Assembly (NCBI RefSeq): GCF_030384885.1
Contig: NZ_CP128613.1
DNA length: 64,000 bases
Strand: one strand, 5' to 3'
DNA from: Escherichia coli
GTDB taxonomy: Bacteria > Pseudomonadota > Gammaproteobacteria > Enterobacterales > Enterobacteriaceae
Part shown: piece after piece, positions 26,037 to 43,290 of the stretch
Layout: each line of letters begins with the position of its first letter
Position numbering within the stretch: position 1 is the stretch's first letter
The notes under the pieces: model-generated
What the model saw: only the letters and a program-made list of their open reading frames with translations
Database searches by the model: none
Told to the model about the DNA's origin: nothing
Translations under genes and position numbers: made by a program

Positions 26037-26112
26037 GATATGGGGTTTGGACGTTGTTAATGAGCAGGACAATCATGACCGCCAACGACTGGATTCTGCC
26101 TTGGTTTATGTT

Positions 26113-26126
26113 GGTGCGCATAATGT
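26113..26126. other. Left prophage-chromosome junction (dif-derived XerC arm fused to phage sequence)
   Basis: GGTGCGCATAATGT core followed by phage-derived CAACGCGTTATGTTGAAAAGG; sequence to the left differs from that left of the other two core copies, so it is chromosomal. Confidence 0.7.
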
Positions 26127-26210
26127 CAACGCGTTATGTTGAAAAGGCCGCTGCGAAAATCGAATCCCGCAGCGGCCTCTTTAGCATAACGTCATTGTGC
26201 GAACCAATAG

Positions 26211-27140
26211 CTACTTTTTCGTATAACTCTCTTCGCATTTAGCCAAAAACAGCAGATTAGTAGCGGTTAAATGAAGGGTATAACTCGCTAAATACTCAGG
26301 AACTTTTGTTATTTCTGCCCCTTGTCCATGTCCACCTTCTTTATTTCGAATGGTTGGAATACCACTCTCAAGTAGAATTCTTATTGAAGAAAATTGATTC
26401 TGGAGGTATTCAGGTACTAAATTATTTGCCAAACAACTGTTAATTAGTTTTTTAGCTGTGTCAGTATCATTAAATTGCCAAGAATGTTTTTTATGTATGG
26501 CTTTCATTAGACTTTCAAAAGATTTGAGGCAATCATTTAAACATTCTTTATATCGCTGATGTCTATAATGCTCATGGGCGGATAAAAACTCATCGTTTGC
26601 TCCGTTATAACTCTTGTTCTTACCAAGAATCTGAAGCGTAGGCTTTACAACATCAGAATGAATGAATTGTGAGTCAACTTTAACCAACTCTCCTGACTCA
26701 AATTGATATCCAAGACCTGCTTCTTTAAACCTGATATTAAGTTCTTCAATAGCATCATCAGGACTTTGCTTTACTAACCCTCTGAATTTCCACTCATTTG
26801 ATCTTATATACCCGTCTATCAGTTTGAAACATATCTCAATGATATCCAAGCATTTTTCATGATCTCTCTCAGCTAGGAAATAGTCAAAAATTGCCCCGAA
26901 ATTCGATTCAGGATACTGTTTGAGAGAGAATACACCATATTCCTTACACAGCGTTTTATGAACGAGTCTGTAAAGCTTACTTGCTTCCGTTTCATAGTCA
27001 CTATCTTCACCGATAGTATCTCTTACAATATGAACAACCTGAACACGAAATGCATTTGGTATATTCGTGTATTGGTAAACATCAGCTACTTCACCTCTTA
27101 ATTTTTTTTGTCTTTTTGAAAATAATTCGAATATAGCCAA
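26211..27140 (-). CDS. Prophage cargo: putative HEPN-domain (Abi_C/AbiJ-like) abortive-infection protein
   Basis: 309-aa ORF with a C-terminal R-x5-H-G motif (IRNKEGGHGQG) of the kind seen in HEPN/Abi_C RNase domains. Apparent TTG start with RBS GAGGA 7 nt upstream. Last gene of the leftward operon. Family assignment is from motif recall only. Confidence 0.5.
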   Translation of the reverse strand: MAIFELFSKRQKKLRGEVADVYQYTNIPNAFRVQVVHIVRDTIGEDSDYETEASKLYRLVHKTLCKEYGVFSLKQYPESNFGAIFDYFLAERDHEKCLDIIEICFKLIDGYIRSNEWKFRGLVKQSPDDAIEELNIRFKEAGLGYQFESGELVKVDSQFIHSDVVKPTLQILGKNKSYNGANDEFLSAHEHYRHQRYKECLNDCLKSFESLMKAIHKKHSWQFNDTDTAKKLINSCLANNLVPEYLQNQFSSIRILLESGIPTIRNKEGGHGQGAEITKVPEYLASYTLHLTATNLLFLAKCEESYTKK

Positions 27141-27223
27141 TTTATAATCCTCAAAGATATGCCATTAATATGTCTGAGTTGATGAAAATCACACCGCTTT
27201 TACAGTCGTTTTCCACGGTGGAG

Positions 27224-27646
27224 TTACCAGTAATATGAGTTTCTTCTGTGCCACCAATAAAGAAGTCCGTATCCAATGATAAGAATTCCGAAAAACATCA
27301 ACGACATTCCCCAGCCAGTTCCGTACCACGAAACCATATCATCGAAAACTAACCCACCCATTTCACGAACTCCGGCTGCTTCCTTAAGAATTGGTTTGAA
27401 TACCGGAATCAGAAGGGCGATCGCAAGTGGAGCACCCCAGCGAACAAGACCAGTTTCCATTTTGATCCCGAAAAAGATCCCCGCACCGACAACAAGCAAC
27501 CAGACTATCAGGCCAGGCGCAGTTTCTAGTGCTGTTTGCCATTCAACATCGAAAGTTTTCATTAGCCAGGCAACAACTGCCAGACAGAAAGCAAATACGC
27601 CTACAACAACCAGTTCAACGCCGCTTGTTTCGTTATTTCTACTCAT
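27224..27646 (-). CDS. Prophage cargo: small integral membrane protein (about 4 TM helices)
   Basis: Track ORF 27224-27793 trimmed to the internal ATG at 27646 (MSRNNETSGVELVVVGVFAF...) with RBS AAGGAT, which removes the overlap with the upstream gene. Four hydrophobic segments; function unknown. Confidence 0.55.
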   Translation of the reverse strand: MSRNNETSGVELVVVGVFAFCLAVVAWLMKTFDVEWQTALETAPGLIVWLLVVGAGIFFGIKMETGLVRWGAPLAIALLIPVFKPILKEAAGVREMGGLVFDDMVSWYGTGWGMSLMFFGILIIGYGLLYWWHRRNSYYW

Positions 27647-27734
27647 CCTTTTGATCCTTTGTTGCTGTTCAAAATCCGCACAATAAAGAACGTGCAGTGT
27701 AGGTAATACTGCACGTTTGTACCATTCGTGGTAC

Positions 27735-27917
27735 TTAATCCTTTTGTTTGGCAGACATGAGATCTTCTGCTGCATCTTTAGAGTAGTTATCAATCAGATA
27801 ACCTAAAATCTCTGTCCATGTAATTGTTTTTCCTAGTTTTACACTGGCATTTATAGCCAGTCGTTCTAGTTTCATTTTTCTTTCTTCCGTCACGTTATAA
27901 GTCGTGCGCTTTGCCAT
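27735..27917 (-). CDS. Small putative DNA-binding regulator (candidate phage repressor)
   Basis: 60-aa ORF divergently transcribed from gII, the position occupied by repressors in CTX-type phages; basic N-terminus (MAKRTTYNVTEERKMKLERLAI). Fold not verified. Confidence 0.4.
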   Translation of the reverse strand: MAKRTTYNVTEERKMKLERLAINASVKLGKTITWTEILGYLIDNYSKDAAEDLMSAKQKD

Positions 27918-27964
27918 TTTTTACGCTCGTTCAATGCAATATTTGAAGTGAGTATACATGCTCA

Positions 27965-28045
27965 TGAACTCATATCATCCAAGCCTCTTGAACTCACTAG
28001 CTCACTGGTGTAATGTTTAAACACTAATGAACTACTGAACTCATG
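27965..28045. promoter_or_regulatory. Divergent promoter/operator region with iterated TGAACTCA motifs
   Basis: TGAACTCA at 27965-27972, 27989-27996 and 28038-28045, plus the variant TGAACTAC at 28027-28034, between the regulator gene and gII. Confidence 0.5.
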
Positions 28046-28086
28046 TGTTAGTAAGTCGTCATTTTTGTAATTTTGAGGATTTATTC

Positions 28087-29139
28087 GTGATCGATTGGCT
28101 TACCGGGATTTTCCCTTGCACACACAAACCGCTTCCGGCGGGGAGTGTTGTCAGCGTTGATGCTGACGGTGCAATTGAGTGGGAAACCGTTAAGCGACTG
28201 ACTGTTCGCGGTTCGCATGAAGCAACGATGAAAGTACGATCGATAGGATCTAATGGCGAAGGTAAAGCGACACATTTGTACATTGATGGTAATCCTTCCA
28301 AGTTTCTGCAGGGGCATTCTGTTGTTGGGTCGGATGATATACAAGGGCTCATGTTGACGGTCTATGCCAGGATTTTATCCTTATTGAATATTCCTCATGA
28401 TTTAGCGGCTTATAAAGCCGTTATGGCAGGTCAGTATAAAATTTCACGTATTGACATTAATTACATGTATTCATTATCTACGCTGGAAAATGTCAGATCA
28501 TGGCTTTATGCCGCCGAATTTAAAGCTAAAACACGCCATGGTCGCGCATGTGGGAAAGGCGGTACAGTTTATTTAGGTAAAAACTCCCGTCGATGGAGTC
28601 TGAAATTTTATTCAAAATATGATGAACACGTTTCTGGTAAAAAAGGGCACCAGATAGCCGAAGAGTTTGTACGAGCCGGGTTACTGGACTGGACGAAAGA
28701 TAAATTACGTATTGAATTAACATTAAGAACAACTGAGCTTATTGATTTAAATTTAACGCTTGGCGCTAACTGGAATATGAAAACACCACGTCAATTATTC
28801 TCTGAATATGTAGGGAGAATAGAAATGAATCAGAATGCTATTTTAAGTGATGAAAAAATAACGAAACTGCCAAGAAAAATACAGTCAACTTATTTACTTT
28901 GGAAACAAGGGGCTAACATGAAAGAAATGTTACCTCATAACACTTTTTATCGCCATAGAAGAGAATTGCTTTCGTTCGGTATCGATATTAATTTCTATTG
29001 TGATTCACCAGACTCTAATAACGTTGTTCCGCTAATAAGAACGCTGGAAGCCAAGCCAGCGGAAATCCCCTTATGGATTTATGAGAAAGGTTTTATTTTC
29101 GATTACAACCGTATTTCGCACGCCAGTAGCTGGCATTAA
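28087..29139 (+). CDS. Replication initiation protein (gII-like rolling-circle nickase)
   Basis: Track ORF 28045-29139 (GTG). Preferred start is GTG 28087 with RBS GAGGA 7 nt upstream, giving N-terminus MIDWLTGIFPC... comparable to M13 pII MIDMLVLRLPF...; C-terminal NNVVPLIRT resembles pII NNVVPLVRF. Confidence 0.75.
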   Translation: MIDWLTGIFPCTHKPLPAGSVVSVDADGAIEWETVKRLTVRGSHEATMKVRSIGSNGEGKATHLYIDGNPSKFLQGHSVVGSDDIQGLMLTVYARILSLLNIPHDLAAYKAVMAGQYKISRIDINYMYSLSTLENVRSWLYAAEFKAKTRHGRACGKGGTVYLGKNSRRWSLKFYSKYDEHVSGKKGHQIAEEFVRAGLLDWTKDKLRIELTLRTTELIDLNLTLGANWNMKTPRQLFSEYVGRIEMNQNAILSDEKITKLPRKIQSTYLLWKQGANMKEMLPHNTFYRHRRELLSFGIDINFYCDSPDSNNVVPLIRTLEAKPAEIPLWIYEKGFIFDYNRISHASSWH

Positions 29140-29150
29140 AGGAAAGTAAT

Positions 29151-29468
29151 ATGTCTAATTATGGTCTTTTCGTTAAGGGTAAAATGTTGGGAGCCCGCCA
29201 ACGTAATAAAGTTAATGGTCAGGGCTATTATAATGAAATTGGTATTGGCCTTGAAATACCTGATGGTTTTGGTGGTACAAAGCAGGATCAAATTATTATT
29301 CGAGTTTCTCAGGCTCTCGTTAACGCAGGTCTAATGAACCAGGCGAATGCTTTCATTGGGAAATTAGTTCAAATTCCTGTCTATGTCCGTGCGTGGTCAA
29401 TGGAGGGTAGGGAAGGTGTAACTTATAATGTTTCTTCCGATGGTGGCATCGCAGAGATCAAAGGTTAA
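29151..29468 (+). CDS. ssDNA-binding protein (gV-like)
   Basis: 105-aa ORF immediately after gII with RBS AGGAAAG; position and size fit the inovirus ssDNA-binding protein. Confidence 0.65.
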   Translation: MSNYGLFVKGKMLGARQRNKVNGQGYYNEIGIGLEIPDGFGGTKQDQIIIRVSQALVNAGLMNQANAFIGKLVQIPVYVRAWSMEGREGVTYNVSSDGGIAEIKG

Positions 29469-29470
29469 AT

Positions 29471-29557
29471 ATGGACGATGTTATTCAAATTTTGATAGCG
29501 TCTGGCATCGTTATTTCTTTTGGCCTCGGCGCGATTACTGCGGGGGTCTTTCGTTAA
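29471..29557 (+). CDS. Minor coat protein (gVII-like), 28 aa
   Basis: MDDVIQILIASGIVISFGLGAITAGVFR resembles M13 g7p (MEQVADFDTIYQAMIQISVVLCFALGIIAGGQR). Below the ORF-track size cut-off; found by hand. Confidence 0.65.
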   Translation: MDDVIQILIASGIVISFGLGAITAGVFR

Positions 29558-29652
29558 TGTATATCGTTTATTTCTTCGGGGCTTATACCTTTGGTTTTGC
29601 CCTTTTCTATGCGGTCGGTTCATTTAAATCATTTTCTGACCGATTAATGTAA
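29557..29652 (+). CDS. Minor coat protein (gIX-like), 31 aa
   Basis: MYIVYFFGAYTFGFALFYAVGSFKSFSDRLM; start overlaps the gVII stop (TAATG) as in Ff phages; hydrophobic like M13 g9p. Confidence 0.6.
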   Translation: MYIVYFFGAYTFGFALFYAVGSFKSFSDRLM

Positions 29653-29671
29653 CCTTAATGGAGTTATTCCT

Positions 29672-29914
29672 ATGAAAATTCTGTCTACTGTTAAATATAA
29701 AGTTGCTCTGGCTTCAACTGCGCTTTTTATTTCTGCAAGTTCTTTTGCGGCTGAAGGCGCTACAGGTGGTACTGATTATGCAGGCCAGGCAATGGATGCT
29801 TTGTTGACTCAGGCAAATGATCTCATTGGTAAAGTATGGCCTGTTGTTGTGGCTGTGGTTGGCGCTGGGCTTGCCATTCGTATTTTCAAAAAATTCTCTT
29901 CAAAAGCGGTTTGA
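29672..29914 (+). CDS. Major coat protein (gVIII-like)
   Basis: 80-aa ORF with signal peptide ending SFAAEG and C-terminus [12 protein letters not shown], close to M13 g8p (...SFAAEG... IKLFKKFTSKAS). Confidence 0.9.
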
Positions 29915-29960
29915 ATTTCACTCAGGGGCACTCGTTGCCCCTTTATTAAAGCGGGTTACT

Positions 29961-31211
29961 ATGAAAAGGAAAATATTAATTCTTTCCGCTGTCCTCATTT
30001 CTCCTTTTTCACATGCTGAGTCATGGGAAAGCATTACTAAATCCACTTATCAAAGTTCTGCCTATGCTGAAAGTAAGCAAATAACCAATCAGGATGGCTC
30101 TAAGATAACGGTTTACTATATTGATGCTGCTATGCAGGCCTCCGCTTGTCAGGGTGCTAAATCCAGTGCTCAGAGTGTATTTACTCGGATTAAACCAACT
30201 TATGAGGGTATCTGGCCTGATTCTGAATTCCGTCTTGTTTTTACTGGCGATTGTACTTACAGCGATTCACCAGGGCAGAAGGATAAATATTGGTCTTTAA
30301 CGGCTTATATTGTTGGTAATATTCAGCGTTCTGTTCCTGATGAAAAACCTACTGACCCGACACCAGAAGAAATTTGTGAAGCGAAGCCGCCAGAAGAAGG
30401 TGTATTTAATAATGTTGATTCATATGATGGTGGTCGCTATATCTACTATAACGGCTGTGAATATGAGGCTACTGGTGTCATTGTTTGTCAGGGTGATGGT
30501 ACTGTTTGCGCTGCAACATGGAAGCCTACAGGTGCTGTAGCTGACCCCTCTGATAAACCCTCAACCCCCCAAAATGGTGGTGGTGAGTCTGGCGGTGGTG
30601 AGTCCGGCGGTGGTGAGTCCGGTGGTGGTGAGTCTGGCGGTGGTGAGTCCGGTGGCGGTAGTTCTGGCGGTGGCTCTAGTGGTTCCAGTCTTTCTAAAGG
30701 TGATATTCAGTCTGCGATCGAAGGTGCTTCACCCAAAATAGCCAGCGATATTCATGATAAATTAACGGAGAAAGACACTTCATCAGATGATAAAAAAAAT
30801 GCCGATGAACAAACCAGGAATAATATAAATCGTCTTGACGATTCCATTAACAATCTTACGCGGGGGGCTGGCCGTTTTGCTGACCCTTCAGGTGGTGATT
30901 CTCGTTATGGAAAGGGCGACTCTGAATTAGATGGCGCTTCTACTTTAGCTGATTCTGAATTGGGAATTGAAAAGGATTCTCACGGTGCTTTATGGGAAGC
31001 ATTTTTAAATAAAGGTGCTATGCTGCCTAATTTACCCAATGGTAACGGCTGCTCTGATTTTATTATTTTTCCCGGAGAGGTTTATCAGATTGATATTGGT
31101 TGCGATAAATTACTGACTATTAAAGATGTTCTTTCATGGGTTTTTTATTGCCTTACGTTCTGGTATGTCTTTACTTCTTTAACTTCATTGCTTCGCAAAG
31201 GGGGTGAGTGA
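29961..31211 (+). CDS. Adsorption protein (gIII-like) with Gly-rich linker
   Basis: Track ORF 29817-31211 trimmed to ATG 29961 ([19 protein letters not shown] signal peptide). GGGES x5 linker and C-terminal anchor (IDIGCDKLL...[17 protein letters not shown]) resemble M13 g3p. Confidence 0.85.
30575..30690 (+). repeat. Tandem 15-bp coding repeats (GGGES)n in the gIII linker
   Basis: Repeated ggtggtgagtc(c/t)ggc units read directly. Confidence 0.85.
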
Positions 31212-31552
31212 TGCCTTTATTATTAGGTATTCCTGCATTGTTGCGTTTTCTTATTGGTCTTGTTCCTTTGTTTATTGGCTATGTGGCGAGTTTTTTAGCT
31301 CGACTTGCTACCAGAACAGGATTAATTGCCTTTGCATTGGTCGCATTAATTACAACAACTGTTACGCTTTTAATGCAGTACCTTGCTGAGGTCATGTATA
31401 ACGGTTTACCTGCTGATTTCTCCCATTTAATGGCGTCTGTATTGCCTGACCATTTTCAGGCGTGTGTTAACGTTATTATGGTTACTCGTATCAGTGTTTT
31501 TGTTTTCGATTTAAAACAAAAATTTCTTGATTATGCAAACAGGGTGATTTAA
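31211..31552 (+). CDS. Minor coat protein (gVI-like)
   Basis: [24 protein letters not shown]... resembles M13 g6p MPVLLGIPLLLRFLGFLLVTLFGY...; ATG overlaps the gIII stop (TGATG). Confidence 0.85.
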   Translation: MPLLLGIPALLRFLIGLVPLFIGYVASFLARLATRTGLIAFALVALITTTVTLLMQYLAEVMYNGLPADFSHLMASVLPDHFQACVNVIMVTRISVFVFDLKQKFLDYANRVI

Positions 31553-32647
31553 ATGGCGGTTTATGTAGTAACAGGCAAATTAGGCTCAGGCAAGACACTT
31601 GTTAGTGTTTCCAGAATACAGGAAAGACTTGCTAAGGGTTGTCCTGTTGCCACTAATCTTGATCTTAAATTGCATAATATGCCTATGGTTGGGCGTTATG
31701 CGAAAAAAACGCGCGTTATTCGCATTCCTGACAAACCTTCATTAAATGATTTACTTGCTATTGGTACTGGGAATACATCTTACGATGAATCCCGTAATGG
31801 CCTCCTTGTACTTGATGAATGTGGTACTTGGTTTAATTCCCGCTCATGGGGTGATAAAGACAGGCAACCTGTTATTGACTGGTTTTTACATGCCAGAAAA
31901 TTAGGCTGGGATATTATATTTTTGATTCAGGATATTTCGATAATGGATAAGCAAGCTCGTCTGGCGCTTGCTGAGCATGTTGTTTATTGTCGCCGTTCAG
32001 ATAAATTAAACATTCCTTTTGTTGGCTCCATTATGAATTTGGTTTCAGGGGCGAGATTTTCTTTACCAAAGGTACACTTTGGCATTGTCAAATATGGTGA
32101 TAATGTTAATTCAATCACTGTTGATAAATGGATATATACAGGAAAATCTCTTTATTCTGCTTACAATACCAAACAAGCGTTCACAGATAATTATCCTCAT
32201 GGCGCATTTTCGCTTTTGCCACCATTTATCACGCACGGTCAATTTTCTGTTCACAGAGGATTTAATTATTATATGCGCCTCACTAAAATTTATTTTCGCA
32301 AATCGAACCGTCTTATATTAATGCTTTCTTTTTTGGCGCTGGGGCTTGCGTTTGGTTTCTGGCTCCAGTCTGGAAAGAATGTTGATGAAATCTCAGCTAT
32401 TAAATCTGCTTATGCTGAACAGGCGAGGGCGGTAACGCCTGATTCGTCCAGTGACTTACCCCGACTTTCTATTAATTCTTTTTCACAACTTGGCTTTGAC
32501 GTTTCCGTTACGTTTGTTGATGCAAAAGGTATGAAATATCAGTATTTTGATTTGATTAAAGATGGTTATTCCGTTGATATTAAAGATGCCTGTCGTGTTG
32601 TTATTAGAAAAGGCCGTTATTTACAGACTGTTACCTGTCAGGAGTAA
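31553..32647 (+). CDS. Assembly ATPase (gI-like; Zot family)
   Basis: MAVYVVTGKLGSGKTLVSV... resembles M13 g1p MAVYFVTGKLGSGKTLVSV...; Walker A GKLGSGKT; C-terminal TM segment. Confidence 0.9.
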   Translation: MAVYVVTGKLGSGKTLVSVSRIQERLAKGCPVATNLDLKLHNMPMVGRYAKKTRVIRIPDKPSLNDLLAIGTGNTSYDESRNGLLVLDECGTWFNSRSWGDKDRQPVIDWFLHARKLGWDIIFLIQDISIMDKQARLALAEHVVYCRRSDKLNIPFVGSIMNLVSGARFSLPKVHFGIVKYGDNVNSITVDKWIYTGKSLYSAYNTKQAFTDNYPHGAFSLLPPFITHGQFSVHRGFNYYMRLTKIYFRKSNRLILMLSFLALGLAFGFWLQSGKNVDEISAIKSAYAEQARAVTPDSSSDLPRLSINSFSQLGFDVSVTFVDAKGMKYQYFDLIKDGYSVDIKDACRVVIRKGRYLQTVTCQE

Positions 32648-32654
32648 TATTATT

Positions 32655-33920
32655 ATGCGCTCTGTTATTGTTGCTTTTTTATTTGCCTGTTCATTCTGCG
32701 TTTCTGCTGAAACTGTTAATTTAAATAATTCATCTGTTCGCTCATTTGTTCAGTGGTATTCTTCAAAAACTGGCAAGCCTGTTATTGTTAATCCTGATAT
32801 TAAAGGAAACGTAACCGTATTTAATGCTGATGTTAATCCAGCAAATATTGATGATTTCTTTAAGTCTGTTCTGAATGCTAACGGTTTTGTCATGCTTTCT
32901 GGCAATCCTGCGGTAGTCTCTTTGCCGTCTAAATTACCTTCACAGATGGTTTCGGATTCCGATGATTCTGATAACCAGTCTTATGATACTTTTCCTTCTG
33001 AGCCATCTTACCAGCCAGTACCTGTGGCGCTTACGGTCAGAAATTTTAAGCTGACAAAAGTTAGATCGTCCGATGTTCAGCAACTGATTAAAATTTATCT
33101 TGATTCTAATGGTGGTGGTAATGTCGTGGATTATCCAGGCAATAACTCGCTGATTGTTTCTGCGCCTGACGAGCTGCTGCCGGTTCTGTCCGATTTTATC
33201 AATTCTGTGGATGTTGCCCGCGATCAGGTTCTCATTCAGTCGCTGATGTTTGAAACCAGCTTGTCTGATGGCGTTGATTTATCGTTTGCGGCAGGTTCTG
33301 CATCCGGTCATAAGGTTGCGGGGGGCTTTAATACTTCTGCACTGGGTAGCGCTCTTTCTACGGCGGGCGGTTCTTTTGGTATTTTTGATGGTAACGTGTT
33401 GGCGCTGTCTCTGCGTGCTGTCCAGAGTAATTCACGCTCTAAGGTGATTTCAACGCCGCGTATTCTTACTCAGTCTGGTCAGACTGGTTACATTTCCGTA
33501 GGTAAGAATGTGCCGTTTATCACCGGAAAGGTAACGGGCGAATCTGCCGGGGTAAATAATCCGTTTCAGACTATCGAGCGTCATGATGTTGGCGTTTCTC
33601 TCAAGGTAACGCCTGTTGTCATGGGTAACGGGCAACTAGTTCTGACTATCGACACTCGCGCTGATTCAATCAGCAATGATGATCAGGCATCCGATATTAT
33701 TACTAATCAGCGCCAGATTCAGACGACAGTCCAGATTAAGGATGGTCAGACGTTGTTATTGGGAGGGCTTATCGATTCATCGTTCAGCAATGCCGAGCGT
33801 TCAGTTCCAGTTATAAGTAAAATTCCTCTTATAGGCTGGATTTTCAGTAGCAAGGCAGACAGCAATGAACAGCGTATTATGTATATTTTGCTTACAGCAC
33901 ATATCATTCGTCCACTTTGA
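32655..33920 (+). CDS. Outer-membrane secretin (gIV-like)
   Basis: Track ORF 32562-33920 trimmed to ATG 32655 (MRSVIVAFLFACSFCVSA signal peptide). Secretin C-domain (GQTLLLGGLIDSSFSNAERSVPVISKIPLIGWIFSS) resembles M13 g4p. Confidence 0.9.
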   Translation: MRSVIVAFLFACSFCVSAETVNLNNSSVRSFVQWYSSKTGKPVIVNPDIKGNVTVFNADVNPANIDDFFKSVLNANGFVMLSGNPAVVSLPSKLPSQMVSDSDDSDNQSYDTFPSEPSYQPVPVALTVRNFKLTKVRSSDVQQLIKIYLDSNGGGNVVDYPGNNSLIVSAPDELLPVLSDFINSVDVARDQVLIQSLMFETSLSDGVDLSFAAGSASGHKVAGGFNTSALGSALSTAGGSFGIFDGNVLALSLRAVQSNSRSKVISTPRILTQSGQTGYISVGKNVPFITGKVTGESAGVNNPFQTIERHDVGVSLKVTPVVMGNGQLVLTIDTRADSISNDDQASDIITNQRQIQTTVQIKDGQTLLLGGLIDSSFSNAERSVPVISKIPLIGWIFSSKADSNEQRIMYILLTAHIIRPL

Positions 33921-33962
33921 TGGATAGCGGGTAGGTGCGTGAGCCCTGCTCGCTATCCATCA
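33918..33962 (+). other. Strong stem-loop after gIV (candidate packaging signal, origin element or terminator)
   Basis: Perfect 12-bp inverted repeat TGATGGATAGCG / CGCTATCCATCA around a 21-nt loop, with no trailing T-run. Confidence 0.5.
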
Positions 33963-33989
33963 AATGGACATTATTGATTGGGGTAACTA

Positions 33990-34298
33990 ATGGATTCTTA
34001 TGGGATTTTATCTGCTCTGGCAGAACGAACGATTACAGCGGAAGAAGCAAAAACAATGACACTTGCAGCCAGAAGTTCTTCGGCTCAGGTAAATGAAGCA
34101 TCACTTGCTCTGTTACTGATTGATAATACTCTGGATGCGATCAAAGCAGCTGCCAGTGAAGGGAAAGGATACACTTTACTTCCTTCTTATGAGATTTCTG
34201 TAAAAGCCATTGATTTAGCAGAAGAATTTTTAAGGAAACAATGCGGCTATGTTATTGATAACCAGAATGGCGTAAGGACGGTCTATTGGTTTATATGA
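33990..34298 (+). CDS. Prophage cargo: hypothetical 102-aa protein
   Basis: ORF after gIV, where Ff phages have only the non-coding intergenic region; no recognisable motif. Confidence 0.45.
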   Translation: MDSYGILSALAERTITAEEAKTMTLAARSSSAQVNEASLALLLIDNTLDAIKAAASEGKGYTLLPSYEISVKAIDLAEEFLRKQCGYVIDNQNGVRTVYWFI

Positions 34299-34415
34299 TA
34301 ACCCCGGACAATGACAAAACTTGCTTTTGTTAGTGTCAGGGGTTGGCCAAGCCGAACAATTCTGTTTTTTTAGCGTTATTGCTGATTCGGCGCGGCAGCA
34401 TTACGAGGAGATAAA

Positions 34416-34649
34416 ATGCAATTTTTCACATCCAGCGATACTGTAATGTTATGTGCGAAGACCTGCGATCGCTGTGGTCGCCATGCGAAGACGGTGGTAG
34501 ATGACATTGAGTTCAATGAGTTTCTGTCTGTTAATCACTTAGCTGGATACGGTTCAATTTTTGGTGACAGTAATCGCTTAAAACTGGATTTATGCCAACA
34601 TTGCCTGAAAGACGTCCTGGGCCAGTGGATTACGGTCTGTGACCAATGA
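34416..34649 (+). CDS. Prophage cargo: small zinc-ribbon protein (CxxC...CxxC)
   Basis: 77-aa ORF with CDRC ... CQHC cysteine pairs; RBS GAGGAG upstream. Confidence 0.5.
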   Translation: MQFFTSSDTVMLCAKTCDRCGRHAKTVVDDIEFNEFLSVNHLAGYGSIFGDSNRLKLDLCQHCLKDVLGQWITVCDQ

Positions 34650-34687
34650 CGGCACCGGTAACGCCAGTTCCCGCCATCCTTACCATT

Positions 34688-34701
34688 GGTGCGCATAATG
34701 T
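34688..34701. other. Inter-copy junction (reconstituted phage attP-like site)
   Basis: GGTGCGCATAATGT core flanked by phage sequence on both sides (...CCATCCTTACCATT | core | CAACGCGTTATGTTGAAAAGG). Confidence 0.7.
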
Positions 34702-34785
34702 CAACGCGTTATGTTGAAAAGGCCGCTGCGAAAATCGAATCCCGCAGCGGCCTCTTTAGCATAACGTCATTGTGCGAACCAATAG

Positions 34786-35715
34786 CTACTTTTTCGTATA
34801 ACTCTCTTCGCATTTAGCCAAAAACAGCAGATTAGTAGCGGTTAAATGAAGGGTATAACTCGCTAAATACTCAGGAACTTTTGTTATTTCTGCCCCTTGT
34901 CCATGTCCACCTTCTTTATTTCGAATGGTTGGAATACCACTCTCAAGTAGAATTCTTATTGAAGAAAATTGATTCTGGAGGTATTCAGGTACTAAATTAT
35001 TTGCCAAACAACTGTTAATTAGTTTTTTAGCTGTGTCAGTATCATTAAATTGCCAAGAATGTTTTTTATGTATGGCTTTCATTAGACTTTCAAAAGATTT
35101 GAGGCAATCATTTAAACATTCTTTATATCGCTGATGTCTATAATGCTCATGGGCGGATAAAAACTCATCGTTTGCTCCGTTATAACTCTTGTTCTTACCA
35201 AGAATCTGAAGCGTAGGCTTTACAACATCAGAATGAATGAATTGTGAGTCAACTTTAACCAACTCTCCTGACTCAAATTGATATCCAAGACCTGCTTCTT
35301 TAAACCTGATATTAAGTTCTTCAATAGCATCATCAGGACTTTGCTTTACTAACCCTCTGAATTTCCACTCATTTGATCTTATATACCCGTCTATCAGTTT
35401 GAAACATATCTCAATGATATCCAAGCATTTTTCATGATCTCTCTCAGCTAGGAAATAGTCAAAAATTGCCCCGAAATTCGATTCAGGATACTGTTTGAGA
35501 GAGAATACACCATATTCCTTACACAGCGTTTTATGAACGAGTCTGTAAAGCTTACTTGCTTCCGTTTCATAGTCACTATCTTCACCGATAGTATCTCTTA
35601 CAATATGAACAACCTGAACACGAAATGCATTTGGTATATTCGTGTATTGGTAAACATCAGCTACTTCACCTCTTAATTTTTTTTGTCTTTTTGAAAATAA
35701 TTCGAATATAGCCAA
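34786..35715 (-). CDS. Copy 2: putative HEPN/Abi_C-like protein
   Basis: Identical translation to 26211-27140 (offset +8575). Confidence 0.5.
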   Translation of the reverse strand: MAIFELFSKRQKKLRGEVADVYQYTNIPNAFRVQVVHIVRDTIGEDSDYETEASKLYRLVHKTLCKEYGVFSLKQYPESNFGAIFDYFLAERDHEKCLDIIEICFKLIDGYIRSNEWKFRGLVKQSPDDAIEELNIRFKEAGLGYQFESGELVKVDSQFIHSDVVKPTLQILGKNKSYNGANDEFLSAHEHYRHQRYKECLNDCLKSFESLMKAIHKKHSWQFNDTDTAKKLINSCLANNLVPEYLQNQFSSIRILLESGIPTIRNKEGGHGQGAEITKVPEYLASYTLHLTATNLLFLAKCEESYTKK

Positions 35716-35798
35716 TTTATAATCCTCAAAGATATGCCATTAATATGTCTGAGTTGATGAAAATCACACCGCTTTTACAGTCGTTTTCCACGGTGGAG

Positions 35799-36221
35799 TT
35801 ACCAGTAATATGAGTTTCTTCTGTGCCACCAATAAAGAAGTCCGTATCCAATGATAAGAATTCCGAAAAACATCAACGACATTCCCCAGCCAGTTCCGTA
35901 CCACGAAACCATATCATCGAAAACTAACCCACCCATTTCACGAACTCCGGCTGCTTCCTTAAGAATTGGTTTGAATACCGGAATCAGAAGGGCGATCGCA
36001 AGTGGAGCACCCCAGCGAACAAGACCAGTTTCCATTTTGATCCCGAAAAAGATCCCCGCACCGACAACAAGCAACCAGACTATCAGGCCAGGCGCAGTTT
36101 CTAGTGCTGTTTGCCATTCAACATCGAAAGTTTTCATTAGCCAGGCAACAACTGCCAGACAGAAAGCAAATACGCCTACAACAACCAGTTCAACGCCGCT
36201 TGTTTCGTTATTTCTACTCAT
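35799..36221 (-). CDS. Copy 2: small integral membrane protein
   Basis: Identical to 27224-27646 (offset +8575). Confidence 0.55.
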   Translation of the reverse strand: MSRNNETSGVELVVVGVFAFCLAVVAWLMKTFDVEWQTALETAPGLIVWLLVVGAGIFFGIKMETGLVRWGAPLAIALLIPVFKPILKEAAGVREMGGLVFDDMVSWYGTGWGMSLMFFGILIIGYGLLYWWHRRNSYYW

Positions 36222-36309
36222 CCTTTTGATCCTTTGTTGCTGTTCAAAATCCGCACAATAAAGAACGTGCAGTGTAGGTAATACTGCACGTTTGTACCAT
36301 TCGTGGTAC

Positions 36310-36492
36310 TTAATCCTTTTGTTTGGCAGACATGAGATCTTCTGCTGCATCTTTAGAGTAGTTATCAATCAGATAACCTAAAATCTCTGTCCATGTAATT
36401 GTTTTTCCTAGTTTTACACTGGCATTTATAGCCAGTCGTTCTAGTTTCATTTTTCTTTCTTCCGTCACGTTATAAGTCGTGCGCTTTGCCAT
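36310..36492 (-). CDS. Copy 2: small putative DNA-binding regulator
   Basis: Identical to 27735-27917 (offset +8575). Confidence 0.4.
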   Translation of the reverse strand: MAKRTTYNVTEERKMKLERLAINASVKLGKTITWTEILGYLIDNYSKDAAEDLMSAKQKD

Positions 36493-36539
36493 TTTTTACG
36501 CTCGTTCAATGCAATATTTGAAGTGAGTATACATGCTCA

Positions 36540-36620
36540 TGAACTCATATCATCCAAGCCTCTTGAACTCACTAGCTCACTGGTGTAATGTTTAAACACT
36601 AATGAACTACTGAACTCATG
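36540..36620. promoter_or_regulatory. Copy 2: TGAACTCA iteron/operator region
   Basis: Identical to 27965-28045 (offset +8575). Confidence 0.5.
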
Positions 36621-36661
36621 TGTTAGTAAGTCGTCATTTTTGTAATTTTGAGGATTTATTC

Positions 36662-37714
36662 GTGATCGATTGGCTTACCGGGATTTTCCCTTGCACACAC
36701 AAACCGCTTCCGGCGGGGAGTGTTGTCAGCGTTGATGCTGACGGTGCAATTGAGTGGGAAACCGTTAAGCGACTGACTGTTCGCGGTTCGCATGAAGCAA
36801 CGATGAAAGTACGATCGATAGGATCTAATGGCGAAGGTAAAGCGACACATTTGTACATTGATGGTAATCCTTCCAAGTTTCTGCAGGGGCATTCTGTTGT
36901 TGGGTCGGATGATATACAAGGGCTCATGTTGACGGTCTATGCCAGGATTTTATCCTTATTGAATATTCCTCATGATTTAGCGGCTTATAAAGCCGTTATG
37001 GCAGGTCAGTATAAAATTTCACGTATTGACATTAATTACATGTATTCATTATCTACGCTGGAAAATGTCAGATCATGGCTTTATGCCGCCGAATTTAAAG
37101 CTAAAACACGCCATGGTCGCGCATGTGGGAAAGGCGGTACAGTTTATTTAGGTAAAAACTCCCGTCGATGGAGTCTGAAATTTTATTCAAAATATGATGA
37201 ACACGTTTCTGGTAAAAAAGGGCACCAGATAGCCGAAGAGTTTGTACGAGCCGGGTTACTGGACTGGACGAAAGATAAATTACGTATTGAATTAACATTA
37301 AGAACAACTGAGCTTATTGATTTAAATTTAACGCTTGGCGCTAACTGGAATATGAAAACACCACGTCAATTATTCTCTGAATATGTAGGGAGAATAGAAA
37401 TGAATCAGAATGCTATTTTAAGTGATGAAAAAATAACGAAACTGCCAAGAAAAATACAGTCAACTTATTTACTTTGGAAACAAGGGGCTAACATGAAAGA
37501 AATGTTACCTCATAACACTTTTTATCGCCATAGAAGAGAATTGCTTTCGTTCGGTATCGATATTAATTTCTATTGTGATTCACCAGACTCTAATAACGTT
37601 GTTCCGCTAATAAGAACGCTGGAAGCCAAGCCAGCGGAAATCCCCTTATGGATTTATGAGAAAGGTTTTATTTTCGATTACAACCGTATTTCGCACGCCA
37701 GTAGCTGGCATTAA
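36662..37714 (+). CDS. Copy 2: replication initiation protein (gII-like)
   Basis: Identical to 28087-29139 (offset +8575). Confidence 0.75.
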   Translation: MIDWLTGIFPCTHKPLPAGSVVSVDADGAIEWETVKRLTVRGSHEATMKVRSIGSNGEGKATHLYIDGNPSKFLQGHSVVGSDDIQGLMLTVYARILSLLNIPHDLAAYKAVMAGQYKISRIDINYMYSLSTLENVRSWLYAAEFKAKTRHGRACGKGGTVYLGKNSRRWSLKFYSKYDEHVSGKKGHQIAEEFVRAGLLDWTKDKLRIELTLRTTELIDLNLTLGANWNMKTPRQLFSEYVGRIEMNQNAILSDEKITKLPRKIQSTYLLWKQGANMKEMLPHNTFYRHRRELLSFGIDINFYCDSPDSNNVVPLIRTLEAKPAEIPLWIYEKGFIFDYNRISHASSWH

Positions 37715-37725
37715 AGGAAAGTAAT

Positions 37726-38043
37726 ATGTCTAATTATGGTCTTTTCGTTAAGGGTAAAATGTTGGGAGCCCGCCAACGTAATAAAGTTAATGGTCAGGGC
37801 TATTATAATGAAATTGGTATTGGCCTTGAAATACCTGATGGTTTTGGTGGTACAAAGCAGGATCAAATTATTATTCGAGTTTCTCAGGCTCTCGTTAACG
37901 CAGGTCTAATGAACCAGGCGAATGCTTTCATTGGGAAATTAGTTCAAATTCCTGTCTATGTCCGTGCGTGGTCAATGGAGGGTAGGGAAGGTGTAACTTA
38001 TAATGTTTCTTCCGATGGTGGCATCGCAGAGATCAAAGGTTAA
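37726..38043 (+). CDS. Copy 2: ssDNA-binding protein (gV-like)
   Basis: Identical to 29151-29468 (offset +8575). Confidence 0.65.
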   Translation: MSNYGLFVKGKMLGARQRNKVNGQGYYNEIGIGLEIPDGFGGTKQDQIIIRVSQALVNAGLMNQANAFIGKLVQIPVYVRAWSMEGREGVTYNVSSDGGIAEIKG

Positions 38044-38045
38044 AT

Positions 38046-38132
38046 ATGGACGATGTTATTCAAATTTTGATAGCGTCTGGCATCGTTATTTCTTTTGGCC
38101 TCGGCGCGATTACTGCGGGGGTCTTTCGTTAA
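38046..38132 (+). CDS. Copy 2: gVII-like minor coat protein
   Basis: Identical to 29471-29557 (offset +8575). Confidence 0.65.
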   Translation: MDDVIQILIASGIVISFGLGAITAGVFR

Positions 38133-38227
38133 TGTATATCGTTTATTTCTTCGGGGCTTATACCTTTGGTTTTGCCCTTTTCTATGCGGTCGGTTCATTT
38201 AAATCATTTTCTGACCGATTAATGTAA
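38132..38227 (+). CDS. Copy 2: gIX-like minor coat protein
   Basis: Identical to 29557-29652 (offset +8575). Confidence 0.6.
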   Translation: MYIVYFFGAYTFGFALFYAVGSFKSFSDRLM

Positions 38228-38246
38228 CCTTAATGGAGTTATTCCT

Positions 38247-38489
38247 ATGAAAATTCTGTCTACTGTTAAATATAAAGTTGCTCTGGCTTCAACTGCGCTT
38301 TTTATTTCTGCAAGTTCTTTTGCGGCTGAAGGCGCTACAGGTGGTACTGATTATGCAGGCCAGGCAATGGATGCTTTGTTGACTCAGGCAAATGATCTCA
38401 TTGGTAAAGTATGGCCTGTTGTTGTGGCTGTGGTTGGCGCTGGGCTTGCCATTCGTATTTTCAAAAAATTCTCTTCAAAAGCGGTTTGA
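38247..38489 (+). CDS. Copy 2: major coat protein (gVIII-like)
   Basis: Identical to 29672-29914 (offset +8575). Confidence 0.9.
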
Positions 38490-38535
38490 ATTTCACTCAG
38501 GGGCACTCGTTGCCCCTTTATTAAAGCGGGTTACT

Positions 38536-39786
38536 ATGAAAAGGAAAATATTAATTCTTTCCGCTGTCCTCATTTCTCCTTTTTCACATGCTGAGTCATG
38601 GGAAAGCATTACTAAATCCACTTATCAAAGTTCTGCCTATGCTGAAAGTAAGCAAATAACCAATCAGGATGGCTCTAAGATAACGGTTTACTATATTGAT
38701 GCTGCTATGCAGGCCTCCGCTTGTCAGGGTGCTAAATCCAGTGCTCAGAGTGTATTTACTCGGATTAAACCAACTTATGAGGGTATCTGGCCTGATTCTG
38801 AATTCCGTCTTGTTTTTACTGGCGATTGTACTTACAGCGATTCACCAGGGCAGAAGGATAAATATTGGTCTTTAACGGCTTATATTGTTGGTAATATTCA
38901 GCGTTCTGTTCCTGATGAAAAACCTACTGACCCGACACCAGAAGAAATTTGTGAAGCGAAGCCGCCAGAAGAAGGTGTATTTAATAATGTTGATTCATAT
39001 GATGGTGGTCGCTATATCTACTATAACGGCTGTGAATATGAGGCTACTGGTGTCATTGTTTGTCAGGGTGATGGTACTGTTTGCGCTGCAACATGGAAGC
39101 CTACAGGTGCTGTAGCTGACCCCTCTGATAAACCCTCAACCCCCCAAAATGGTGGTGGTGAGTCTGGCGGTGGTGAGTCCGGCGGTGGTGAGTCCGGTGG
39201 TGGTGAGTCTGGCGGTGGTGAGTCCGGTGGCGGTAGTTCTGGCGGTGGCTCTAGTGGTTCCAGTCTTTCTAAAGGTGATATTCAGTCTGCGATCGAAGGT
39301 GCTTCACCCAAAATAGCCAGCGATATTCATGATAAATTAACGGAGAAAGACACTTCATCAGATGATAAAAAAAATGCCGATGAACAAACCAGGAATAATA
39401 TAAATCGTCTTGACGATTCCATTAACAATCTTACGCGGGGGGCTGGCCGTTTTGCTGACCCTTCAGGTGGTGATTCTCGTTATGGAAAGGGCGACTCTGA
39501 ATTAGATGGCGCTTCTACTTTAGCTGATTCTGAATTGGGAATTGAAAAGGATTCTCACGGTGCTTTATGGGAAGCATTTTTAAATAAAGGTGCTATGCTG
39601 CCTAATTTACCCAATGGTAACGGCTGCTCTGATTTTATTATTTTTCCCGGAGAGGTTTATCAGATTGATATTGGTTGCGATAAATTACTGACTATTAAAG
39701 ATGTTCTTTCATGGGTTTTTTATTGCCTTACGTTCTGGTATGTCTTTACTTCTTTAACTTCATTGCTTCGCAAAGGGGGTGAGTGA
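38536..39786 (+). CDS. Copy 2: adsorption protein (gIII-like)
   Basis: Identical to 29961-31211 (offset +8575). Confidence 0.85.
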
Positions 39787-40127
39787 TGCCTTTATTATTA
39801 GGTATTCCTGCATTGTTGCGTTTTCTTATTGGTCTTGTTCCTTTGTTTATTGGCTATGTGGCGAGTTTTTTAGCTCGACTTGCTACCAGAACAGGATTAA
39901 TTGCCTTTGCATTGGTCGCATTAATTACAACAACTGTTACGCTTTTAATGCAGTACCTTGCTGAGGTCATGTATAACGGTTTACCTGCTGATTTCTCCCA
40001 TTTAATGGCGTCTGTATTGCCTGACCATTTTCAGGCGTGTGTTAACGTTATTATGGTTACTCGTATCAGTGTTTTTGTTTTCGATTTAAAACAAAAATTT
40101 CTTGATTATGCAAACAGGGTGATTTAA
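39786..40127 (+). CDS. Copy 2: gVI-like minor coat protein
   Basis: Identical to 31211-31552 (offset +8575). Confidence 0.85.
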   Translation: MPLLLGIPALLRFLIGLVPLFIGYVASFLARLATRTGLIAFALVALITTTVTLLMQYLAEVMYNGLPADFSHLMASVLPDHFQACVNVIMVTRISVFVFDLKQKFLDYANRVI

Positions 40128-41222
40128 ATGGCGGTTTATGTAGTAACAGGCAAATTAGGCTCAGGCAAGACACTTGTTAGTGTTTCCAGAATACAGGAAA
40201 GACTTGCTAAGGGTTGTCCTGTTGCCACTAATCTTGATCTTAAATTGCATAATATGCCTATGGTTGGGCGTTATGCGAAAAAAACGCGCGTTATTCGCAT
40301 TCCTGACAAACCTTCATTAAATGATTTACTTGCTATTGGTACTGGGAATACATCTTACGATGAATCCCGTAATGGCCTCCTTGTACTTGATGAATGTGGT
40401 ACTTGGTTTAATTCCCGCTCATGGGGTGATAAAGACAGGCAACCTGTTATTGACTGGTTTTTACATGCCAGAAAATTAGGCTGGGATATTATATTTTTGA
40501 TTCAGGATATTTCGATAATGGATAAGCAAGCTCGTCTGGCGCTTGCTGAGCATGTTGTTTATTGTCGCCGTTCAGATAAATTAAACATTCCTTTTGTTGG
40601 CTCCATTATGAATTTGGTTTCAGGGGCGAGATTTTCTTTACCAAAGGTACACTTTGGCATTGTCAAATATGGTGATAATGTTAATTCAATCACTGTTGAT
40701 AAATGGATATATACAGGAAAATCTCTTTATTCTGCTTACAATACCAAACAAGCGTTCACAGATAATTATCCTCATGGCGCATTTTCGCTTTTGCCACCAT
40801 TTATCACGCACGGTCAATTTTCTGTTCACAGAGGATTTAATTATTATATGCGCCTCACTAAAATTTATTTTCGCAAATCGAACCGTCTTATATTAATGCT
40901 TTCTTTTTTGGCGCTGGGGCTTGCGTTTGGTTTCTGGCTCCAGTCTGGAAAGAATGTTGATGAAATCTCAGCTATTAAATCTGCTTATGCTGAACAGGCG
41001 AGGGCGGTAACGCCTGATTCGTCCAGTGACTTACCCCGACTTTCTATTAATTCTTTTTCACAACTTGGCTTTGACGTTTCCGTTACGTTTGTTGATGCAA
41101 AAGGTATGAAATATCAGTATTTTGATTTGATTAAAGATGGTTATTCCGTTGATATTAAAGATGCCTGTCGTGTTGTTATTAGAAAAGGCCGTTATTTACA
41201 GACTGTTACCTGTCAGGAGTAA
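40128..41222 (+). CDS. Copy 2: assembly ATPase (gI/Zot-like)
   Basis: Identical to 31553-32647 (offset +8575). Confidence 0.9.
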   Translation: MAVYVVTGKLGSGKTLVSVSRIQERLAKGCPVATNLDLKLHNMPMVGRYAKKTRVIRIPDKPSLNDLLAIGTGNTSYDESRNGLLVLDECGTWFNSRSWGDKDRQPVIDWFLHARKLGWDIIFLIQDISIMDKQARLALAEHVVYCRRSDKLNIPFVGSIMNLVSGARFSLPKVHFGIVKYGDNVNSITVDKWIYTGKSLYSAYNTKQAFTDNYPHGAFSLLPPFITHGQFSVHRGFNYYMRLTKIYFRKSNRLILMLSFLALGLAFGFWLQSGKNVDEISAIKSAYAEQARAVTPDSSSDLPRLSINSFSQLGFDVSVTFVDAKGMKYQYFDLIKDGYSVDIKDACRVVIRKGRYLQTVTCQE

Positions 41223-41229
41223 TATTATT

Positions 41230-42495
41230 ATGCGCTCTGTTATTGTTGCTTTTTTATTTGCCTGTTCATTCTGCGTTTCTGCTGAAACTGTTAATTTAAA
41301 TAATTCATCTGTTCGCTCATTTGTTCAGTGGTATTCTTCAAAAACTGGCAAGCCTGTTATTGTTAATCCTGATATTAAAGGAAACGTAACCGTATTTAAT
41401 GCTGATGTTAATCCAGCAAATATTGATGATTTCTTTAAGTCTGTTCTGAATGCTAACGGTTTTGTCATGCTTTCTGGCAATCCTGCGGTAGTCTCTTTGC
41501 CGTCTAAATTACCTTCACAGATGGTTTCGGATTCCGATGATTCTGATAACCAGTCTTATGATACTTTTCCTTCTGAGCCATCTTACCAGCCAGTACCTGT
41601 GGCGCTTACGGTCAGAAATTTTAAGCTGACAAAAGTTAGATCGTCCGATGTTCAGCAACTGATTAAAATTTATCTTGATTCTAATGGTGGTGGTAATGTC
41701 GTGGATTATCCAGGCAATAACTCGCTGATTGTTTCTGCGCCTGACGAGCTGCTGCCGGTTCTGTCCGATTTTATCAATTCTGTGGATGTTGCCCGCGATC
41801 AGGTTCTCATTCAGTCGCTGATGTTTGAAACCAGCTTGTCTGATGGCGTTGATTTATCGTTTGCGGCAGGTTCTGCATCCGGTCATAAGGTTGCGGGGGG
41901 CTTTAATACTTCTGCACTGGGTAGCGCTCTTTCTACGGCGGGCGGTTCTTTTGGTATTTTTGATGGTAACGTGTTGGCGCTGTCTCTGCGTGCTGTCCAG
42001 AGTAATTCACGCTCTAAGGTGATTTCAACGCCGCGTATTCTTACTCAGTCTGGTCAGACTGGTTACATTTCCGTAGGTAAGAATGTGCCGTTTATCACCG
42101 GAAAGGTAACGGGCGAATCTGCCGGGGTAAATAATCCGTTTCAGACTATCGAGCGTCATGATGTTGGCGTTTCTCTCAAGGTAACGCCTGTTGTCATGGG
42201 TAACGGGCAACTAGTTCTGACTATCGACACTCGCGCTGATTCAATCAGCAATGATGATCAGGCATCCGATATTATTACTAATCAGCGCCAGATTCAGACG
42301 ACAGTCCAGATTAAGGATGGTCAGACGTTGTTATTGGGAGGGCTTATCGATTCATCGTTCAGCAATGCCGAGCGTTCAGTTCCAGTTATAAGTAAAATTC
42401 CTCTTATAGGCTGGATTTTCAGTAGCAAGGCAGACAGCAATGAACAGCGTATTATGTATATTTTGCTTACAGCACATATCATTCGTCCACTTTGA
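41230..42495 (+). CDS. Copy 2: secretin (gIV-like)
   Basis: Identical to 32655-33920 (offset +8575). Confidence 0.9.
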   Translation: MRSVIVAFLFACSFCVSAETVNLNNSSVRSFVQWYSSKTGKPVIVNPDIKGNVTVFNADVNPANIDDFFKSVLNANGFVMLSGNPAVVSLPSKLPSQMVSDSDDSDNQSYDTFPSEPSYQPVPVALTVRNFKLTKVRSSDVQQLIKIYLDSNGGGNVVDYPGNNSLIVSAPDELLPVLSDFINSVDVARDQVLIQSLMFETSLSDGVDLSFAAGSASGHKVAGGFNTSALGSALSTAGGSFGIFDGNVLALSLRAVQSNSRSKVISTPRILTQSGQTGYISVGKNVPFITGKVTGESAGVNNPFQTIERHDVGVSLKVTPVVMGNGQLVLTIDTRADSISNDDQASDIITNQRQIQTTVQIKDGQTLLLGGLIDSSFSNAERSVPVISKIPLIGWIFSSKADSNEQRIMYILLTAHIIRPL

Positions 42496-42537
42496 TGGAT
42501 AGCGGGTAGGTGCGTGAGCCCTGCTCGCTATCCATCA
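42493..42537 (+). other. Copy 2: stem-loop after gIV
   Basis: Identical to 33918-33962 (offset +8575). Confidence 0.5.
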
Positions 42538-42564
42538 AATGGACATTATTGATTGGGGTAACTA

Positions 42565-42873
42565 ATGGATTCTTATGGGATTTTATCTGCTCTGGCAGAA
42601 CGAACGATTACAGCGGAAGAAGCAAAAACAATGACACTTGCAGCCAGAAGTTCTTCGGCTCAGGTAAATGAAGCATCACTTGCTCTGTTACTGATTGATA
42701 ATACTCTGGATGCGATCAAAGCAGCTGCCAGTGAAGGGAAAGGATACACTTTACTTCCTTCTTATGAGATTTCTGTAAAAGCCATTGATTTAGCAGAAGA
42801 ATTTTTAAGGAAACAATGCGGCTATGTTATTGATAACCAGAATGGCGTAAGGACGGTCTATTGGTTTATATGA
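42565..42873 (+). CDS. Copy 2: hypothetical 102-aa cargo protein
   Basis: Identical to 33990-34298 (offset +8575). Confidence 0.45.
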   Translation: MDSYGILSALAERTITAEEAKTMTLAARSSSAQVNEASLALLLIDNTLDAIKAAASEGKGYTLLPSYEISVKAIDLAEEFLRKQCGYVIDNQNGVRTVYWFI

Positions 42874-42990
42874 TAACCCCGGACAATGACAAAACTTGCT
42901 TTTGTTAGTGTCAGGGGTTGGCCAAGCCGAACAATTCTGTTTTTTTAGCGTTATTGCTGATTCGGCGCGGCAGCATTACGAGGAGATAAA

Positions 42991-43224
42991 ATGCAATTTT
43001 TCACATCCAGCGATACTGTAATGTTATGTGCGAAGACCTGCGATCGCTGTGGTCGCCATGCGAAGACGGTGGTAGATGACATTGAGTTCAATGAGTTTCT
43101 GTCTGTTAATCACTTAGCTGGATACGGTTCAATTTTTGGTGACAGTAATCGCTTAAAACTGGATTTATGCCAACATTGCCTGAAAGACGTCCTGGGCCAG
43201 TGGATTACGGTCTGTGACCAATGA
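42991..43224 (+). CDS. Copy 2: zinc-ribbon cargo protein
   Basis: Identical to 34416-34649 (offset +8575). Confidence 0.5.
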   Translation: MQFFTSSDTVMLCAKTCDRCGRHAKTVVDDIEFNEFLSVNHLAGYGSIFGDSNRLKLDLCQHCLKDVLGQWITVCDQ

Positions 43225-43262
43225 CGGCACCGGTAACGCCAGTTCCCGCCATCCTTACCATT

Positions 43263-43290
43263 GGTGCGCATAATGTATATTATGTTAAAT
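43263..43290. other. dif: Chromosomal dif site (XerC/XerD dimer-resolution site), intact
   Basis: Exact match to the E. coli dif consensus GGTGCGCATAATGTATATTATGTTAAAT, read directly; forms the right prophage junction. Confidence 0.9.

Follow-up and report, generated by a model that had tools for sequence, protein, structure and literature searches.

Whole-unit length variation of a GGGES-coding repeat in the attachment protein gene of UPΦ-type prophages of Escherichia coli

Related filamentous phages and the prophage array at dif

The UPΦ phages are inovirus prophages integrated in tandem at dif, described from Escherichia coli, Salmonella, Citrobacter, Klebsiella and Yersinia enterocolitica (Shapiro and Putonti, 2020, Virus Evol 6:veaa030; PMC7307601). 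According to the available part of that report, from which the statements on UPΦ below are taken, they are about 50% identical to IKe and I2-2. Kinship with YpfΦ and CUS-1 is confined to gII and gV, for which UPΦ viruses are characterised by more than 85% identity to YpfΦ, with less than 20% identity to YpfΦ outside these genes. Gene III was represented by 95 distinct protein sequences in 229 genomes, and one 'GGGES' repeat in the attachment protein g3p was the sole difference between laboratory isolates (PMC7307601). A spontaneous lengthening of the Gly-rich region of IKe, without selective advantage, is cited there (Bruno and Bradbury, 1997, in PMC7307601).

IKe and I2-2 (Lineavirus) possess a g3p composed of a pilus-binding domain, a TolA-binding domain, one long Gly-rich linker and a C domain, an architecture shared by the g3p studied here. 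The linker units of IKe are of the GGGDT/GGGST/GGGSS type in place of GGGES, and IKe is non-integrating. In pIII of the Ff phages (M13, fd, f1), flexible (GGGS/E)n tethers also connect the receptor-binding domains to the C domain. However, Ff pIII carries a pair of linkers, with N1 (TolA) placed ahead of N2 (pilus), and its homology to the present g3p is limited to the TolA-binding domain and the C domain. Being flexible, the linkers of pIII cannot be seen by cryo-EM (PMC10175506), and large inter-domain insertions are tolerated by M13 pIII (PMC4412080). These reports support a tolerance of linker length. CUS-1 and YpfΦ resemble the present prophage in host range, in tandem arrays at dif and in a variable accessory region, but only gII and gV are related, and their attachment gene (puvA) is non-homologous (PMC7307601).

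The window, i.e. the entire stretch of 64,000 nt analysed from E. coli contig NZ_CP128613.1, contains two consecutive inovirus prophage units (Table 1). Both copies named in an earlier note, which had been made from the sequence alone, exist and are free of mismatches: positions 26111-34701 equal 34686-43276. Each unit carries minus-strand cargo followed by gII, gV, gVII, gVIII, gIII, gVI, gI, gIV and two small ORFs. Pfam matches were obtained for gII, gV, gVIII, gVI (DUF5455), gI (Zot) and gIV (secretin); gVII is known from the RefSeq annotation of a 99.8%-identical prophage. The left and the middle junction share the first 14 nt of dif (GGTGCGCATAATGT). The genes hipBA are located just upstream of the prophage, whose left flank matches an E. 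coli chromosome at 99.9% identity.

Every UPΦ feature that was checked is present. These comprise tandem integration at dif, where the junctions repeat no more than the first ~15 nt of the site, structural genes sharing about 50% identity with IKe and I2-2 (here 50% for g3p to IKe and 55.8% for gII to I2-2), reverse-strand accessory ORFs beside the dif-like junction, two small genes after gIV, and GGGES copy number in g3p as the main variation between strains (PMC7307601). On its sequence, the window prophage is of the UPΦ type. Variation of the GGGES copy number in UPΦ g3p was published in 2020, and the variation treated here is already in the literature, because the window prophage shares all tested UPΦ features (PMC7307601). 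The described UPΦ901 measures 7,560 bp in contrast to 8,575 bp here, owing to a different cargo gene (AbiJ-like). Unit-level haplotypes, 12- and 30-bp sub-periodicities and the codon-scrambled control presented below have no counterpart in the available part of the 2020 report. An identification as CUS-1/YpfΦ, suggested by dif, hipA and a match to UM146, was rejected: g3p is IKe-like, and UPΦ and YpfΦ are akin in gII and gV only (PMC7307601). When 50,697 phage records were searched by megablast with the entire prophage, the only matches were gIV fragments of about 190 bp from IKe and PEar phages. A search for gV homologues yielded Enterobacterales clusters, with no entry named Y. pestis.

The accessory slot, from the dif-like junction to gII, varies among near-identical prophages. 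In the window (26211-27140 and 34786-35715, both minus strand) it encodes a protein with AbiJ_NTD4 and DUF7014, matching the PADLOC candidate PDC-S32 (E=4.5e-10). The slot holds a Doc-family toxin in KFu015 and EC23, and a PD-(D/E)XK nuclease together with DUF6953 in 1368KP. It looks like a swap-in site for defence or toxin-antitoxin cargo. Directly to the right of dif lies a 5.7-kb stretch that is at least 80% covered in only two of 5,426 E. coli genomes. It includes a gene for a 477-aa protein (44992-46425, minus strand) with a 60-bp tandem repeat (45115-45727, 10.2 copies) that encodes 20-aa leucine-rich repeats. Pfam gives LRR only, while similar E. coli records are annotated as NEL-type E3 ubiquitin ligase. 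A gene for a 654-aa ankyrin-repeat protein (47118-49082, plus strand) adjoins it.

Table 1. Positions of the prophage units, gene III and the linker repeat in the window
Feature	Position	Strand	Basis
Inovirus prophage unit 1, 8,575 bp	26111..34685	+	Self-comparison, Pfam, RefSeq annotation of relative
Prophage unit 2, 8,575 bp, 100% identical to unit 1	34686..43260	+	Self-comparison
Hybrid dif-like junction, GGTGCGCATAATGT then phage sequence; again at 34688-34715	26113..26140	+	dif comparison
Exact E. coli dif closing the array	43263..43290	+	28/28 match
Gene III (g3p attachment protein) CDS, 416 aa, copy 1	29961..31211	+	Pfam, IKe g3p alignment
Gene III CDS, copy 2	38536..39786	+	Exact identity, offset 8,575 nt
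N-terminal pilus-binding domain (IKe type), residues ~20-128	30018..30344	+	PF21443 E=2.2e-25; PDB 4eo0 E=3.1e-26
TolA-binding (N1-like, Phage_Coat_A) domain, residues ~130-195	30348..30545	+	PF05357 25.8 bits (cut-off 20.8 bits); PDB 4eo1 E=3.6e-25
Five near-identical 15-bp units, (GGGES)5, g3p residues 206-230, copy 1	30576..30650	+	Unit-by-unit DNA coding
Degenerate 3′ units, 13 aa, residues 231-243, copy 1	30651..30689	+	Linker alleles and unit coding
C-terminal domain (virion-tip anchor and membrane helix), residues 244-416	30690..31208	+	IKe g3p C domain and f1 pIII 8b3o alignments
Linker array, prophage copy 2, base-for-base same as copy 1	39151..39264	+	Exact repeat

The gene III product and its linker

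Along its full length, the protein encoded by gene III shares 50% identity with IKe g3p. A 99.8%-identical gene of Res13 carries the RefSeq name 'attachment protein'. All tested characteristics of an IKe-type g3p were found: the pilus domain, the TolA domain, the Gly-rich linker with the anchor, and the gene context. An AlphaFold model built with 24 homologues showed pLDDT values of 85-95 in both N-terminal domains. Across the linker (residues ~206-250), between confident domains, the values were about 26-35, which is consistent with a disordered tether in the model. Helices were predicted at 246-333 and 383-413. Because Pfam, PDB, the alignment with IKe and the AlphaFold domain placement agree, the array is identified as a single long tether of the IKe type that connects the receptor-binding block with the C-terminal anchor domain, not as the N1-N2 linker of M13. 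The assignment to gene III in the earlier note is thus supported by the Pfam domains, by the matches to 4eo0 and 4eo1 at E values around 1e-25 and by the identity to IKe. The flexible linker that it had placed between g3p domains also held, as a Gly/Ser stretch joins the N-terminal receptor-binding block to the C-terminal domain.

TRF detected a period-15 array at 30575-30673 with 6.6 copies and 84% matches, which was scored also at periods 30 and 45, and a twin period-15 array at 39150-39248. The TRF score was 133-154. A 26-nt two-unit pattern gave 8 matches in the window and 0 in 100 shuffles. The five (GGGES) units, directly preceded by residues QN in the g3p frame, vary at synonymous third positions only (GGT/GGC, TCT/TCC). 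Coded unit by unit, the window linker reads ABBAB, then C, D, E. The degenerate 3′ end of the array is kept in most alleles examined, among them the 20 that were coded by unit, and a subset has a variant 3′ end. The units are arranged head to tail with high DNA identity, as in a VNTR, according to the TRF score and exact self-matches of 17-161 nt. TRF and in-frame reading confirmed the near-perfect (GGGES)5 coding repeat with degenerate copies reported beforehand, whose coordinates of 30575-30690 were right within 1 nt at either end. A +1-frame ORF over the repeat (30574-30741, 'MVVVSLAVV...') was rejected as a gene; it is a by-product of the repeat without support. A search of the array for Chi sites, which could have hinted at recombination, found none.

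Linker length between isolates and within genomes

The g3p gene is present in 50 of 5,426 complete E. coli genomes, with a matched length of 1,131-1,389 bp. For all full-length matches except those in EC5502, the deviation from 1,254 bp is a multiple of 3. The sample studied further comprised 25 loci from 24 complete E. coli genomes, 21 IMG/VR contigs and proteins read from two 90% clusters, one of 682 and the other of 165 members. In all fetched loci, length differences are confined to the linker. The GGGES lineage contains 36 linker alleles of 23-83 aa across 57 sources. Three nested periodicities are recognizable: 15 bp (GGGES), 30 bp (a 10-aa unit pair) and 12 bp (GGSS). The DNA coding of units revealed that terminal units stay in most alleles, while internal units are gained or lost. 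ABBABCDE in the window compares with ABBBBABCDE in KFu015 and ABBBHABCIDE in UM146; other strings are AFF(BC)3-4GE in BH100 and AFF(BC)6GE in HB37.

Five linker alleles (105-243 nt) were found on one identical 1,143-nt non-repeat g3p sequence (n=10 loci). Two further groups of 4 loci each contained 4 linker alleles per group. KFu015 and the window have identical flanks and are two units apart. Assemblies of BH100 from 2014 and 2017 are one 30-bp unit apart and otherwise the same over 4.3 kb; they are separate assemblies, and the unit may be an assembly difference. The copy number is polymorphic by whole units on otherwise identical haplotypes, which is characteristic of a VNTR. Expansion and contraction of the linker, expected in the earlier note, was borne out at the population level by the 36 alleles and by whole-unit changes on otherwise identical g3p haplotypes. 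The comparison among related phages proposed there as a check also revealed variation between isolates, over the range of 23-83 aa.

Artefacts of assembly or sequencing, such as collapsed or mis-polished repeats, could in principle mimic these differences. Draft assemblies often break in the array, as all nine short 'partial' g3p entries begin or end inside it, and the difference between the BH100 assemblies could stem from the sequencing method. A 15-copy array in EC5502 comes from an error-ridden assembly. However, each of the 22 usable alleles from complete genomes keeps the reading frame, with differences of whole units only, and copies from one genome match one another (28 copies). Particular alleles recur across independent genomes and IMG/VR contigs, and the arrays span just 63-243 nt, well inside single reads. 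The same variation was found in an independent study (PMC7307601). Artefacts are therefore a highly improbable explanation of the length differences. Three other partial g3p entries all end just ahead of an A8 run (about 30793-30800 in the window). EC5502 (NZ_CP092647.1) has 15 g3p matches in one chromosome, the largest array seen; copy count and sequence are untrustworthy in this frameshifted assembly. It was left out as evidence because the assembly is full of frameshifts, and a 1-nt shift puts one of its linker copies out of frame.

Within one genome, g3p copies are always identical. This holds for 28 copies in 11 genomes including the window, with 2-4 copies each, judged from sequence and identical protein accessions. 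The copies agree even where prophages of one genome differ elsewhere. K-15KW01 has four tandem copies, of which three carry a frameshifted gI and the leftmost a different cargo, with the same g3p in all. In Res13, the second prophage copy has a shortened gI (29829-30861 of the Res13 locus), while g3p is the same in both copies. The comparison of repeat number between the two prophage copies of the window, suggested in the earlier note for raw reads and made here on the assembly, gave no difference. As copies never differ within a genome, either change is slow compared with the age of the arrays, or the copies are homogenised by gene conversion or by polishing of the assembly. Some E. coli genomes contain chimeric ORFs, in which the N-terminal part of g3p runs on into either the C-terminal part of gI or the gIV secretin. 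They point to internally deleted and probably defective prophage copies. Two g3p copies were also found in E. coli KE48 on NZ_CP141085.1, a 385-kb record classed as plasmid, which is unexpected for a dif-integrating phage.

Origin and consequences of the variation

A sister lineage, about 82% identical, carries (GGGDT)4 with scrambled synonymous codons. At offset 15, exact self-matches extend to 6-14 nt at most in the GGGDT lineage and to 17-47 nt in the GGGES lineage, where they reach up to 161 nt at offset 30. The aligned segment comprises 62 aa in nine of ten GGGDT-lineage loci. This lineage is not wholly invariant, and protein entries exist that have 6 units or a shortened tail. Variation in linker length depends on the purity of the DNA repeat. 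Since the GGGDT peptide repeat, which lacks DNA identity, is much more stable, misalignment of DNA rather than selection on the peptide is indicated as source of the variation. The sequence comparison points to an origin at the DNA level, by slippage or unequal exchange.

The array is very probably a coding minisatellite, in which misalignment of the DNA repeats changes the number of units and the flexible tether tolerates the resulting lengths. In the proposed mechanism, near-identical units would misalign during replication, or unequal exchange would take place between copies, and whole internal units would be added or removed. Since the length of every unit is divisible by 3, the reading frame would be kept. 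The g3p is the tip protein for cell attachment and entry of a UPΦ-type (IKe-like) filamentous phage. Its tether joins the two receptor-binding domains, pilus-binding and then TolA-binding, to a C-terminal domain embedded in the virion tip. The wide range of lengths that a flexible tether tolerates may explain why many length alleles persist. Length may be nearly neutral, as suggested by one study on IKe, known second-hand (Bruno and Bradbury, 1997, in PMC7307601).

The molecular route may be slippage of the polymerase or recombination. Unequal recombination dependent on RecA, or gene conversion, with tandem prophage copies or co-resident replicative forms as partners, is possible as the main route but somewhat doubtful. 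Prophages are nearly always tandem (median of 2 places per genome), copies are homogenised within the genome although other genes differ (K-15KW01), and exact 30-bp repeats reach 161 nt. Diverse alleles occur in single-copy lysogens too (UM146, HB37, E1, MB51), however, and identities of 15-47 nt are short for RecA-dependent exchange. The present data do not discriminate recombination from slippage, both of which are compatible with a minisatellite.

Alternatively, the array could be an adaptive contingency locus. Linker length would then tune infectivity or host range through the reach past pili, O-antigens and capsules, and the homogeneity of the units would be maintained since mutability is advantageous. 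The wide length range of 23-83 aa agrees with such a role. In work ascribed to Nilsson et al. in 2000, a shorter distal linker reportedly lowered the infectivity of fd. Gene III is the most variable UPΦ gene, and host specificity was raised as a possibility by the authors (PMC7307601). Several pIII copies may clamp the pilus via long linkers, as proposed from cryo-EM (PMC10175506). On the other side, the longer IKe linker that arose in the laboratory brought no selective advantage (Bruno and Bradbury, 1997, in PMC7307601), the GGGDT sister lineage does well at nearly fixed length, and mutational bias together with tolerance explains the pattern fully. An adaptive role of this kind is unlikely. 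A true contingency locus, in which rapid and reversible changes of the tether re-tune adsorption or entry to hosts that differ in pili or surface layers and in which the GGGDT lineage represents a 'locked' state, is very unlikely.

The array is a fast-changing in-frame marker that separates UPΦ prophages with no other differences. Short-read assemblies break at it and counts of 'distinct' g3p proteins are inflated by it, which calls for caution in pangenome studies and phage typing. In practice, these consequences are modest. The additions made here to the prior UPΦ report, as far as its available part extends (PMC7307601), are incremental and consist of the unit-level haplotypes and the codon-scrambled control. 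The natural contrast between the codon-homogeneous GGGES and the codon-scrambled GGGDT repeats offers a ready means to separate mutational bias from selection.
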